Below are positions 14,641-16,401 of a DNA stretch of 64,000 nucleotides, piece by piece. A program made the position numbers and the translations under genes. This stretch comes from a virus, in the IMG/VR virus record IMGVR_UViG_3300037440_000222, one strand, 5' to 3'. The first letter of the stretch is position 1, and every line of letters starts with the position of its first letter. Below the pieces are notes generated by a model, which saw only the letters and a program-made list of their open reading frames with translations, was not told where the DNA came from and did no database searches.

Positions 14641-14882
14641 ATTCTGCCTTTGAAGTTATCAATGAACTTTTGATATTGCTCATCATTAAGATTAATACGA
14701 TTTCTTATAACCTCAAGAGCATCGTTCAATCCCATATATCGACCACATTGTTGATGATAGGCAATTGGATGTTCGTTTTGAAGTTTACCCATTAGGGAAA
14801 GTGCTTCCATAGACAATGAGAGTACCTTATCTTCAATATCTTTCATACCATAATGTATAAGATTACTTTTTTGATTTGACAT
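14637..14882 (-). CDS. hypothetical small protein
   Basis: ORF track. Overlaps both neighbours. Confidence 0.5.
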   Translation of the reverse strand: MSNQKSNLIHYGMKDIEDKVLSLSMEALSLMGKLQNEHPIAYHQQCGRYMGLNDALEVIRNRINLNDEQYQKFIDNFKGRI

Positions 14883-16401
14883 GAGTCACCGTGTTTCTGA
14901 TTCTAGGAATCTCAACTTCCATAATCTTATCCACCAACGTCCGTGCTGGCGGCCCACCGAGCAGTTGTACAACTTGGTCTAGCACGTAATAATCTGACCC
15001 ATCGTACTCAAACACGTCAGGGTCAATATGTGCATATTCCTGAATGCTCTCAATGAACAGTGGCATTTTGCGATAATCAGACCCGCGACTAATACCTAGC
15101 ACGACCACACGCGGGACGACCGAATTCTGTTCCGTATAGTGGTTGAGTGACTTAGCAAATTCACCAATATGGTTCTCGCCGCCGTCCGTCACGATAACGA
15201 TAGCTTGCGGGGTGAAACCGGCGCGTAACGCAATCTCAAAACCGGCTTGTACATTTGTCCCACCTGCTGCACGAATAGCGCGGAACGCATGATTCCATCC
15301 TTGCAGCGAGTCGCGTTCCCCAATATTCATAATAAGACCAGCGTTGTTGAACGTCGATACTGCCAATTCGCCATCGACGCTAGGAGCTATACGAACACCT
15401 AACTGTTTCGCTGTCTCAATCGCGTCCTCCATCGACCCGCTGCGGTCAATCATGAGCAGGGTGTCAGACTCTATGCGCTTGCCAGTTTCAACAGACTTCT
15501 GTTTTGCTTGCGCAATTGCTTGTGAGATACGCGTATCCGCGCCTTGCGCCGATTTACGGTGTTCAGCGGATGCAACGGATACAGGTGCGGAAGCAATCTT
15601 GCGCTCATAGACTTCGCGCACTTCGGGGATGGATAGCAAGCCAGACTGCTCAACTGCACGACGGGCATTCATCGCTTCAACAGGTGACATATTGTTAATT
15701 AGAGCAACGCCGACTTGGGGAGTCTTTCCAGTCAAAGTCATGGCGATGCGATACGGAATACGATTTTCGATAATAAGCGATGCTTGCTCAGAAGCGTCAC
15801 TTGATGCCGCGATTTTTTTCAGTGCGTCGAACATTGACCCTTCTGGCGGCGCATCTTCGTGCAGGATGAGACGTGCGCGTTCAGACGGAGCGACGTGATA
15901 GGTGATATATGCGGAACGGACAGCTTGGCGGTTCTGGATAACTACTGCATCCCACCAGTCGGTATCCTTCTCCAGCGTTTTGAGATAGTCGTGAGCTATA
16001 CGTTTCAACACGCGGGGGATTTTGCGACGTAACGGTGCAGGAACATCTTCTGGTGGATGGTTAATGAAATCAAGGATGCGGAAGATACGGTAAGGTGGAA
16101 GTCCTGAGAAGTTGTGTTGGTGGTCGATGTCATAGAAGGACGAACCGAGCAGGATTGCGCGACCAGCTTCACGATATTCAGGAAAGTCGTTAGGTGATTG
16201 GAGCAAAGTGATGATTGCAATATCCTCTTGGTCACGGATAGACGTGTTACCGGCGCATAGATAAACGCACATTCGAGCAACGAAGTCGGGGTCAGTTTCA
16301 AACGCTTCGTGGAATGCGACGACAGGTTCGGCATATTGACGATGCGGTACGGAGAGTAATTGTCGGTGCAGGATAGTACGTGCGCGGTTTTGTTCGGTCA
16401 T
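14863..16401 (-). CDS. vWA-domain protein with TROVE/Ro60-like N-terminal region (putative Ro60/Rsr orthologue)
   Basis: MIDAS LLMIDRSGSM, GGTNVQAG and IVIVTDGGEN define a C-terminal vWA domain. The preceding ~300 aa are helical with Ro60-like segments (NNMSPVEAMNARRAVEQSGLL). RBS AGGAG. The TROVE assignment was made by eye only. Confidence 0.5.
   Translation of the reverse strand: MTEQNRARTILHRQLLSVPHRQYAEPVVAFHEAFETDPDFVARMCVYLCAGNTSIRDQEDIAIITLLQSPNDFPEYREAGRAILLGSSFYDIDHQHNFSGLPPYRIFRILDFINHPPEDVPAPLRRKIPRVLKRIAHDYLKTLEKDTDWWDAVVIQNRQAVRSAYITYHVAPSERARLILHEDAPPEGSMFDALKKIAASSDASEQASLIIENRIPYRIAMTLTGKTPQVGVALINNMSPVEAMNARRAVEQSGLLSIPEVREVYERKIASAPVSVASAEHRKSAQGADTRISQAIAQAKQKSVETGKRIESDTLLMIDRSGSMEDAIETAKQLGVRIAPSVDGELAVSTFNNAGLIMNIGERDSLQGWNHAFRAIRAAGGTNVQAGFEIALRAGFTPQAIVIVTDGGENHIGEFAKSLNHYTEQNSVVPRVVVLGISRGSDYRKMPLFIESIQEYAHIDPDVFEYDGSDYYVLDQVVQLLGGPPARTLVDKIMEVEIPRIRNTVTHVKSKK

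Follow-up and report, generated by a model that had tools for sequence, protein, structure and literature searches.

Within the 64,000-nucleotide viral DNA recorded in IMG/VR as IMGVR_UViG_3300037440_000222 (the whole of this stretch is called the window below) lies a gene whose 512-aa product was proposed, in a sequence-only reading of the DNA, to be a Ro60/TROVE-like vWA protein encoded alongside the RNA ligase RtcB and an operon of tRNAs and tRNA-like RNAs. The locus raises the question of whether the protein is a Ro60 at all and, if it is, which RNAs and which proteins it keeps company with. The window is identified as phage DNA by its genes for a large terminase (37055-38668), a DNA methyltransferase and an endolysin-type peptidase, and the open reading frame (ORF) in question is present as described, with an ATG start and with conserved homologues. 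We find that the protein is predicted to be a divergent Ro60, and that its conserved partners, which the sequence-only reading had missed, are a small, putatively ubiquitin-like (Ubl-like) protein, a protein that we call p301, and a ThiF/E1-like enzyme.

14863..16401, minus strand: Ro60-like protein of 512 aa, with the ring at residues ~1-305 plus a C-terminal helix and the vWA domain at residues ~308-470 (about nt 14992-15480)

An AlphaFold2 model of this protein, built on the family alignment (pLDDT 91.5, pTM 0.84), has the helical-repeat ring plus vWA domain that the earlier reading led one to expect. In a Foldseek search of the PDB its top 13 matches are all Ro60, Rsr or phage phiRo60, over 507-554 aligned columns; the template modelling (TM) scores are 0.55-0.66 and the root-mean-square deviations (rmsd) 5.5-7.9 Å for most of them, two phiLo dimer chains being poorer, and generic vWA domains rank after this set with ~200 aligned columns. 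Since bona fide Ro60s lie 5.8-6.5 Å rmsd from one another at ~17% identity (PMC12135203), the window protein is about as distant from them as they mutually are. Ro60 is the only architecture to which the predicted model aligns at full length, and on this model we take the protein to have the Ro60 fold, a helical-repeat ring closed by a vWA domain, and to be a remote homologue of Ro60/Rsr.

The vWA motifs quoted in the sequence-only reading are all present, namely LLMIDRSGSM (the DxSxS motif, with D319, S321 and S323), GGTNVQAG (T382) and IVIVTDGGEN (D406), and these five residues of the metal ion-dependent adhesion site (MIDAS) are invariant in an alignment of 55 family members. The domains that Pfam reports for the query and the family are of VWA type only (VWA_2, VWA_CoxE and VWA), VWA_2 matching residues 314-407 of the query with an E value of 3.6e-5, just under the gathering score; PF25045 vWA_Ro60 is weakly matched by 5 of the 55 members, PHROG 850 ('RNA-binding protein') matches the Ro-like protein at 1.4e-11, and one source names a homologue 'Mg-chelatase subunit ChlD'. 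When PDB chains are searched with the single sequence the best match is a 'TROVE domain-containing protein' (9l5y/9kop, E 0.0016), in an alignment that begins ~120 residues ahead of the vWA domain. With the family profile, Ro60 is ranked first: the Ro60 of Thermus phage phiLo (9l5y/9kop) scores 2.4e-11 and human RO60 4.2e-11, followed at some distance by Xenopus Ro60 (9e-8) and D. radiodurans Rsr (3e-3), and the single non-Ro60 protein above Rsr is an archaeal 'conserved protein', 8s05. The best of these alignments span profile positions 182-430, corresponding to the last third of the ring and the vWA domain, and this part of the protein is homologous in sequence to Ro60. The alignment to human RO60 (9nen) also reproduces a resemblance noted in the sequence-only reading: NNMSPVEAMNARRAVEQSGLL had been likened to a Ro60 segment, and here 'MsptealnsrawversGlle' is paired with a 20-residue segment of RO60, '...MSPVEAMNARRAVEQSGLL' falling on the corresponding Ro60 helix.

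The family to which the protein belongs is large. An initial homology search gave 82 relatives at 24-50% identity, nearly all of them full-length, and when 1.84 billion cluster representatives were searched exhaustively with a profile, 506 clusters (at 50% identity) had E<=1e-30 and 1194 had E<=1e-10; with 82 homologues and 506 clusters, the 512-aa ORF is not a product of chance. Among the best 150 matches listed, all of which are close, there are no sequences that bridge the family to Pfam-TROVE proteins. Those members with recovered genomic context are mostly on large phage contigs; the contigs of the loci compared below are 23-572 kb in length, and 14 of the 21 that come from IMG/VR exceed 80 kb. 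A near-identity DNA search of INPHARED found no related phage, and the best protein match among deposited phages is in an unannotated 595-kb uncultured phage, at 30% identity. One family member among the matches listed (P0147, 901 aa) contains an intein with a LAGLIDADG endonuclease at about residue 322, which is the MIDAS DxSxS motif.

The window gene also has a peculiarity of its own, in that a 48-nt direct repeat, 94% identical between its copies, lies at 15810-15857 within the Ro-like gene and at 17299-17346 within an upstream 134-aa ORF (17144..17548). The copy in the Ro-like gene encodes the conserved motif APPEGSMFDALKKI (family motif PPxDSKLAxLKxIA), and the 134-aa ORF therefore bears the same 14-residue peptide as the Ro-like protein. 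The repeat may have arisen by partial duplication, may be the scar of a recombination event, or may serve as a peptide mimic.

We have compared 25 loci, comprising the window and 24 related loci from metagenomic and IMG/VR contigs, and searched all of them with profile hidden Markov models (HMMs) for genes that accompany the Ro-like gene. There is a fixed order on one strand: a small protein of 69-100 aa, the Ro-like gene, one or two small ORFs, p301 (270-300 aa), 0-7 kb of variable genes, and a ThiF-family protein of 200-218 aa. p301 is present in 21 of the 25 loci and the small Ubl-like protein in 19, the ThiF-like gene is found wherever the contig reaches, and the four most divergent Ro-like loci lack all three. 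Where the module is present, the Ro-like proteins are just 26-50% identical. The three partners in the window are as follows.

13735..14640, minus strand: p301, 301 aa, with the motifs LPRFYV, PFNxSDAEQRGWxNGxP and SAGxC, and with 47 homologues
12843..13499, minus strand: minimal ThiF/E1-like adenylating enzyme, 218 aa as listed, matching Pfam ThiF at 1.4e-15, above the gathering score; the start is likely at the Met of MKILIAGCG
10283..10558, minus strand: Ubl-like domain of 92 aa ending ...VRGATVLG, matched by an HMM of the relatives' small proteins at E 1e-8

The Ubl-like domain of the window is the N-terminal part of a longer ORF (10037..10591) in which an unrelated 82-aa helical extension follows the Gly; it is 39% identical to the domain of locus L001, the similarity stops at the Gly, and the L001 extension is Cys-rich. 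This terminal Gly is invariant in 13 sequences of the small protein (consensus …GNITVRPEAVFG), and what comes after it is a stop, one to four residues, or unrelated extensions. Independently of gene order, natural fusions of the two proteins are found among the matches listed from the exhaustive search: in P0150 (…RPEASWG followed by AVTTE…) and P0178 (…RPDAKLG followed by ADDEDE…) the Gly is kept and stands directly before the Ro-like N-terminus, and in P0196, P0235, P0209, P0168 and P0212 a small domain that lacks the Gly tail is joined to the Ro-like part through a repetitive linker of ~190 aa. We note that this linker is rich in Leu, Arg and Gly in all five, with repeats such as LEPLGRGxRGLLRAF, and that it matches no family.

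The ThiF/E1-like enzyme has its GxGxxG motif, catalytic Lys and DCxDN motif intact, as read from the sequence; its best NCBIfam matches are weak ones to ThiF, PRTRC ThiF, SAMP E1 and MoeB, with no curated subfamily at cut-off, and the PADLOC E1-E2 models match it at 1e-6. The only invariant Cys of p301 is Cys268, in the SAGxC motif, and in the AlphaFold2 model (pLDDT 90.3), which has beta-barrel domains and a long helix, it is borne on a C-terminal sheet. Structural hints of an OB-fold in p301 (HIN-200, LEF-3 and Trbp111) have TM<0.3 and we do not rely on them. Scans of the query and its neighbours against curated libraries (Pfam, PHROG, NCBIfam and PADLOC) returned only VWA, ThiF, RtcB and helicase matches, and none for p301, the Ubl-like protein, p81, p200 or p134. 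Because the protein that ends in Gly is small, has an invariant terminal Gly with removable tails and fusion precursors, and is inherited together with an E1-type enzyme, we infer that it is ubiquitin-like and that the ThiF-family protein is its activating enzyme. A description of the combined Ro, Ubl, E1 and p301 module was not found in the searchable literature, outside which an earlier mention of TROVE together with E1 (Burroughs and Aravind 2016, on RNA repair systems) is possible.

The Ro-like gene is almost always beside tRNA arrays. There is a tRNA no more than 2.5 kb upstream of it in 18 of the 19 IMG/VR relatives that have enough upstream DNA, on the same strand in 17 of these, and in the window, L001 and L003 the array is instead 5-6 kb downstream. 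Three of the relatives (L006, L009 and L023) contain elements with a conserved order of T-arm, a hairpin with a GCAA or UUCG tetraloop, D-arm and anticodon-like arm, with a stem of the 5′ and 3′ flanks enclosing the whole, and these are circularly permuted tRNA mimics of the bacterial YrlA design. The Rfam YrlA model (RF02553) matches exactly these elements in the three loci and nothing else, at 26-28 bits against a gathering threshold of 69 and over the tRNA-like core only, and with such sub-gathering scores they are best described as YrlA-like in design and not as members of YrlA. With a covariance model made from the three elements, L009 (94 bits), L017 and L011 (67 bits), L019 (three copies), L010 and L022 yield more full-length copies in the neighbourhood of the Ro-like gene; the YrlA-like RNAs of the relatives lie 0.25-3.8 kb upstream of the Ro-like gene and on its strand. 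Across nine copies 93.8% of cells pair, compared with 36-46% when the partners are slid, and there are compensatory changes in 25 of 29 pairs, across all five helices, in an alignment that was itself fitted to the model. Two of the loci with YrlA-like RNAs, L011 and L022, have no Ubl, p301 or E1 partner, a sign that the pairing of Ro with a Y-like RNA may be the older, ancestral core. That part of the sequence-only reading which tied the gene to tRNAs and tRNA-like RNAs is borne out in modified form by the relatives (18 of 19 for tRNAs, several for YrlA-like RNAs), and the part which joined RtcB to them is not.

Ordinary tRNAs in the same arrays have the same leader (…TTACAAAC), trailer (ACTTGGACAGA) and flanking stem as the YrlA-like elements. 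Upstream of the Ro-like gene in L007, L009, L012 and L023, each array has 3-14 clustered copies of the motif TTACAAAC(A) on its coding strand, most of them immediately before the 5′ end of a tRNA; the motif is present also at L001 15199, at L003 14883 and at ~8093-8099 in the window. It goes together with the trailer and with a stem of leader and trailer that encloses each unit, and it probably serves all units of the phage tRNA arrays as a signal for processing or as a promoter. We considered it as a Ro-binding signature and rejected this, as it abuts the 5′ ends of ordinary tRNAs, and we read it as a leader, processing or promoter-type motif. Two other features of the arrays deserve mention. 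In L004 (8537-8611), L007 (9694-9765), L018 (6485-6561) and L024 (9203-9279) the position directly upstream of the Ro-like gene is taken by suppressor-type tRNAs with tta and tca anticodons, a hint of stop-codon recoding in these large phages. In L019 (9233-10000) tRNA-like units stand in tandem, the 3′ acceptor strand of a unit being complementary to the 5′ acceptor strand of the next across a loop of 4-5 nt (CTCTGGG-GCTCA-CCCAGAG and CTTGGGC-TTGA-GCCCAAG), forming permuted modules with the conserved inserts CGACTAGCTAG ... GCCCTACAG..GCCATACA.

In the window itself the tRNA array begins 5.8 kb downstream of the Ro-like gene and has structured non-coding RNAs interspersed. The eight tRNAs, two tRNA-like RNAs with an extra arm and the long-stem RNAs (two of them) that had been noticed on this strand were all recovered, by ARAGORN and Rfam and by folding.

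4611..9075, minus strand: eight tRNAs (Gln, His, Asn, Arg-tct, Ile-tat, Met, Ala and Ser-tga), called by ARAGORN, with Rfam scores of 53-74 bits
9097..9238, minus strand: tRNA-like RNA tl1, with a T-arm motif outside the annotated tRNAs; a candidate Y-RNA analogue
8813..8936, minus strand: tRNA-like RNA tl2, a paralogue of tl1; fold of -40.8 kcal/mol, z -4.1
8238..8386, minus strand: long-stem RNA A, with a 24-bp terminal stem enclosing two hairpins; -68.7 kcal/mol, z -7.8, with none of 200 shuffles as stable
8098..8228, minus strand: long-stem RNA B, with a ~20-bp terminal stem; fold z -4.8
9398-9426, minus strand: promoter-like site (11/12) ahead of the tRNA array and the tRNA-like and long-stem RNAs

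The two tRNA-like RNAs are built of a 7-bp acceptor stem followed by ACC, a T-arm, an arm of ~55 nt with internal loops at the anticodon position, and a second arm; neither ARAGORN nor Rfam makes a call on them. The long arm of tl1 contains GCCGAAC, and the two long arms have in common the sequence CAGUUCG...UUUGUACG...CGAACAU, of which there is a degenerate third copy at ~8960-8995. The alignment of just these two sequences is too poor to justify a covariance model. In YrlA the Ro-binding stem leaves the tRNA-like body at the anticodon position. The long arm of tl1 and tl2 leaves the body at this same position, but their 5′ and 3′ ends are at the acceptor; as a hypothesis, either of the two could reasonably be the RNA that partners Ro. 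Long-stem RNAs A and B, whose terminal stems are near-perfect, sit between tRNA-Met and tRNA-Ile, a setting reminiscent of the T4 tRNA cluster with its stable RNAs of unknown function. We note also that the tRNA-Ser (tga) at 9000-9075 on the minus strand is 76 nt long, has an AAACAAA/TTTGTTT acceptor stem and is without the long variable arm of bacterial tRNA-Ser, and judging from its sequence its identity may differ from its anticodon label. The only Rfam YrlA match in the window, at 19.8 bits, was rejected, as it overlaps tRNA-Ser and is of a known type of T-arm/tandem-tRNA artefact.

RtcB, the protein that the sequence-only reading had placed alongside the Ro-like gene, is encoded on the same strand, but its nearness was overstated. 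It lies 10.4 kb upstream, with at least 14 ORFs between, among them genes for a UvrD-like helicase, a Rad52-like protein, an actin-like ALP/ParM protein, a LytR-family protein and unknowns. Within 10-kb flanks of the Ro-like gene RtcB occurs in only three of the 25 loci (the window, L001 and L002, all of the window's own clade), in L001 again ~10 kb upstream, and with unrelated genes between the two and no such linkage in the other 22 loci neither a partnership nor a shared operon is upheld. RtcA, a kinase/phosphatase, Hen1 or another end-healing enzyme was not seen among the window ORFs tested, and RtcR was not found. RtcB is loosely linked, outside the conserved module and not a dedicated partner, and the picture of a Salmonella-like rsr-rtcBA operon does not apply to this gene. 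These and the other annotated features around the Ro-like gene are listed here.

26841..28133, minus strand: RtcB RNA ligase (Pfam RtcB 5e-69; PHROG 1075 1.5e-88)
25217..26755, minus strand: UvrD-like SF1 helicase; in L001 and L003 it is likewise upstream of the Ro-like gene, from which one small ORF and ~0.3 kb separate it
22322-23086, minus strand: Rad52-like recombinase
20710-21702, minus strand: actin-like ALP/ParM protein
17574..17602, minus strand: sigma-70-like promoter match, TTGACA-17-TATGAT with a TG extension, 11/12, a consensus match only
14637..14882, minus strand: 81-aa ORF (p81) overlapping the 3′ end of the Ro-like gene
9423-10037, minus strand: HNH endonuclease, between the Ubl-fusion gene and the tRNA array
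29953-30534, minus strand: Imm5-like immunity protein

The promoter match lies upstream of the gene string p134-p200-p49-Ro-like-p81-p301-...-ThiF, and between it and the tRNA array the minus strand has a few weak terminator-like hairpins, none of them outstanding. A small ORF at the position of p81 is present in relatives too, with no detectable conservation.

The reading that we favour, and hold to be moderately probable, is that the protein is a divergent phage ring of the Ro60/Rsr type which binds tRNA-like RNAs and is coupled to Ubl/E1 chemistry. By analogy with known Ro proteins, the ring would bind structured tRNA-like RNAs, these being the Y-like RNAs in the relatives and tl1/tl2, the long-stem RNAs or pre-tRNAs in the window phage, would chaperone, protect or triage bound or misfolded RNAs during infection, and might engage a host exoribonuclease such as PNPase, as phiRo60 does. 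To go by the sequences, the E1-like enzyme would adenylate the C-terminal Gly of the Ubl-like protein once its tail or extension is removed, and the activated Ubl may then pass, probably by way of Cys268 of p301, to the Ro-like ribonucleoprotein (RNP) or to a client. Such a transfer could regulate or mark the Ro-like RNP or the client, the RNP serving as scaffold, target or adaptor, and RtcB elsewhere in the genome may repair cleaved tRNAs. A bolder proposal makes the phage Ro60-like ring family the hub of a new ubiquitin-like pathway, in which the Gly-terminated small protein, at times produced as a precursor fused to the Ro-like protein, would be activated by a minimal E1, handed on through the Cys of p301, and conjugated to the Ro-like RNP, to partners of its RNA clients or to host RNA-decay factors; this we put forward tentatively, as a possibility that falls short of an even chance.

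A number of results weigh against the favoured reading. As regards the ring, Pfam TROVE (PF05731) matches neither the query at E<=10 nor any of the 55 family members at E<=1, so that in the Pfam comparison proposed by the sequence-only reading the VWA half came out as foreseen (VWA_2, below gathering) and the TROVE half did not. A sub-profile of the N-terminal 205 aa finds no Ro60 match in the PDB, and for the N-terminal two-thirds of the ring the support therefore comes from predicted structure. The sequence-only reading had itself named the lack of a TROVE hit, combined with an N-terminal fold unlike the Ro60 ring, as counting against it; there is indeed no Pfam hit, and the N-terminal fold predicted is that of the Ro60 ring. 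With respect to the partners, p301 has no significant match by Foldseek in the PDB or BFVD or by PDB profile search, the small protein matches no curated family and, in a PDB profile search, no solved structure, nor does it match Ub, ThiS or MoaD by hhalign (with approximate sequences of these three), and neither an E2 (UBC) nor a JAB or DUB domain is seen in p301 or the neighbours tested; moreover, the synteny of the module could come in part from the shared ancestry of one phage lineage. Turning to the RNAs, tl1 folds no better than shuffles (z -1.0), tl1 and tl2 are 5.6-6 kb downstream of the Ro-like gene, and blastn of the structured RNAs of the window against the 24 other loci gives matches at the level of T-arms only, with no homologues of tl1/tl2 or the long-stem RNAs. 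A covariance model run with filters off finds no YrlA-like permuted element in the 64-kb window, and the GNCGAA(N)G motif occurs there at chance frequency and never inside a non-coding candidate. Finally, as the flanking stem of the relatives' elements is common to ordinary tRNA units, their terminal stem may be a processing feature and not a Ro-binding site.

How do other explanations fare with the same observations? That the gene encodes a generic vWA protein of the ChlD, CoxE or MoxR-partner type, with an unrelated helical N-terminus and a superficial likeness to Ro60, would agree with the exclusively VWA-type Pfam domains and with the homologue labelled ChlD; it is effectively refuted by the profile and structure searches, in which Ro60 outranks generic vWA proteins (save for 8s05, above Rsr in the profile search) and in which Foldseek covers the whole protein for Ro60 and ~200 columns for the vWA-only matches. 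A repair kit centred on RtcB, in which host anticodon nucleases cut tRNAs and the ring, loaded with tRNA-like RNA, is the scaffold on which these are religated, seems to us unlikely. It has in its favour the presence of RtcB on the same strand, its like position in L001, the arrangement of rsr, Y RNAs and rtcBA in Salmonella as one operon induced by tRNA damage (PMC7790460), and a survey of jumbo phages that groups ROT/TROVE with RNA ligases as RNA-repair components (PMC7824862), but the 10.4 kb and the helicase, Rad52-like, ALP and LytR-family genes that intervene, the restriction of the linkage to a single clade, the lack of RtcA, kinase/phosphatase or Hen1 among the ORFs tested, and the fact that the conserved partners are other genes speak against it.

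The partners themselves could be read as a sulfur relay, with the small protein as a carrier of the ThiS/MoaD/TtuB type that is thiocarboxylated by the E1-like enzyme, and with p301 (through Cys268) and the ring in the roles of sulfurtransferase and tRNA-docking platform for thiolating phage tRNAs. The best NCBIfam matches of the E1-like enzyme are indeed ThiF/MoeB adenylyltransferases, its minimal size of ~200 aa is that of sulfur-carrier E1s, the module is always beside tRNA arrays, and p301 has its single invariant Cys and its weak OB-fold-like matches, including one to the tRNA-binding Trbp111. However, the module proteins have no signature of a PP-loop ATPase, a rhodanese or a cysteine desulfurase, the C-terminus is FG, LG or WG and not GG, precursors with long extensions and fusions to Ro are more typical of conjugated modifiers, and the structural matches of p301 are not significant; we consider this explanation improbable. 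It is also conceivable that proteins are all that is involved, the ring having lost its RNA binding and serving the Ubl/E1/p301 pathway as vWA/HEAT scaffold, as target or as adaptor, for example with the MIDAS metal binding the Ubl carboxylate, and the tRNAs being coincidental. The MIDAS sites of vWA and integrin I domains bind acidic ligands, as is generally known and as this would require, and it would sit well with an N-terminal ring too diverged for a sequence match, with the want of a Y RNA in the window, and with the fusion of Ubl to the Ro-like protein in several members. Yet YrlA-like RNAs lie beside the gene in several relatives, two of them without the Ubl module, tRNA adjacency is near-universal, and the segment homologous to the Ro60 core is conserved, so that we give this explanation little credence.

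Ro60, a major autoantigen, has been conserved all the way from bacteria to humans, and both the role of its vWA domain and MIDAS and the way in which the ring is regulated are open questions. Should the favoured reading of an RNA-binding ring coupled to Ubl/E1 chemistry be right, a large lineage of phage Ro60-like proteins has been overlooked by domain databases and the known distribution of the fold is enlarged; the linkage and fusion to a Gly-terminated protein, together with the E1-like enzyme and the Cys protein, would supply a testable idea of how Ro rings may be regulated or used by Ubl-type chemistry; and the Y-like RNAs of the relatives, as permuted tRNA mimics within tRNA arrays, would provide material on how Ro rings choose their RNAs, with a bearing on the ways in which large phages safeguard or police the supply of their own tRNAs. 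If the ring family were in fact a hub, Ubl chemistry would be directly coupled to quality control of tRNA-like RNAs in infection. If the link is one of inherited synteny only, the protein is one more divergent phage Ro60, useful for annotation and unsurprising.

Phage Ro60s have already been reported: Chen et al. 2014 (PMC4201824) describe 22 phages in which a Ro60 gene adjoins YrlA-type Y RNAs, Iyer et al. 2021 (PMC7824862) note ROT/TROVE proteins in some jumbo phages, together with RNA ligases and tRNAs, and Hu et al. 2025 (PMC12135203) solved the phiRo60 of a Thermus phage and demonstrated its binding to two Y-like RNAs and to host PNPase, a nuclease that it attenuates; the window protein is therefore a divergent addition to a known kind. 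It most resembles the phiRo60 of phiLo (9KOP, 9L5Y), which is likewise phage-encoded, has ~500 aa and consists of a HEAT-repeat ring with an inserted vWA domain, and which gives the family profile its best PDB sequence match (2.4e-11) and has Foldseek TM scores of 0.60/0.66. The metal (Ca2+) site of phiRo60, D322/S324/T391/D416, corresponds to D319/S321(S323)/T382/D406 in the window protein. The two are, however, only ~15-17% identical; phiRo60 is recognisable as a TROVE protein and was deposited under that name, whereas the window family has no Pfam TROVE match; its basic RNA-contact residues lie in a region without sequence alignment to the window protein; and two Y-like RNAs with CGAA motifs lie immediately upstream of it, of which we find no counterpart in the window. 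For phiLo there is no report of Ubl, E1 or p301 partners. That phiRo60 binds PNPase and Y RNA has been demonstrated, and for the window protein such binding is suggested by analogy.

The bacterial Rsr proteins with their YrlA/Yrn RNAs (D. radiodurans, and the rsr-yrlBA-rtcBA genes of S. Typhimurium; PMC4201824) have the same ring fold (2nvo, TM 0.55), and the permuted RNAs of our relatives, with T-arm, closed acceptor hairpin and D-arm within 4 kb on the same strand, correspond to the published criterion for YrlA; RtcB is also present in the genome that carries the window gene. In contrast to YrlA, the relatives' elements have retained an arm like that of the anticodon, it is on the variable-loop side that their terminal stem departs, and no GNCGAA(N)G motif was found; and, in contrast to the rsr-rtcBA locus of S. 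Typhimurium, RtcB in the window is outside the operon, with neither RtcA nor RtcR found. The ROT/TROVE proteins of jumbo phages (PMC7824862), Asgard viruses and Borgs (bioRxiv 10.1101/2021.07.29.454249; PMC11208441) are likewise of Ro60 type and occur in large elements that also have tRNAs and RNA ligases, and the Asgard-virus genomes carry ThiF/E1 homologues as well; unlike the window family these proteins are recognised by their TROVE domain, and no linked Ubl-E1-Cys module or Ubl-Ro fusion was found for them in searchable papers.

The nearest parallels to the partner genes are the prokaryotic Ubl/E1 systems (ThiS-ThiF, MoaD-MoeB, TtuB-TtuC, SAMP-UbaA, PRTRC, Bil/Bub and CBASS Cap2), which also encode a protein with a C-terminal Gly together with a ThiF-family enzyme, and in which precursors with tails past the Gly are likewise met with, as is a partner that has one invariant Cys. 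The small protein of the window differs in matching no known Ubl family, the minimal E1 is below every curated cut-off, and no E2, JAB or DUB is detected; association with a Ro60-like protein is a feature of none of the systems named. What is new here, in comparison with all of these, is a conserved and sometimes fused set of Ubl-like, E1-like and Cys proteins accompanying a divergent phage Ro60, with sequence features that suggest a possible Ubl-type mechanism acting on or through the ring.

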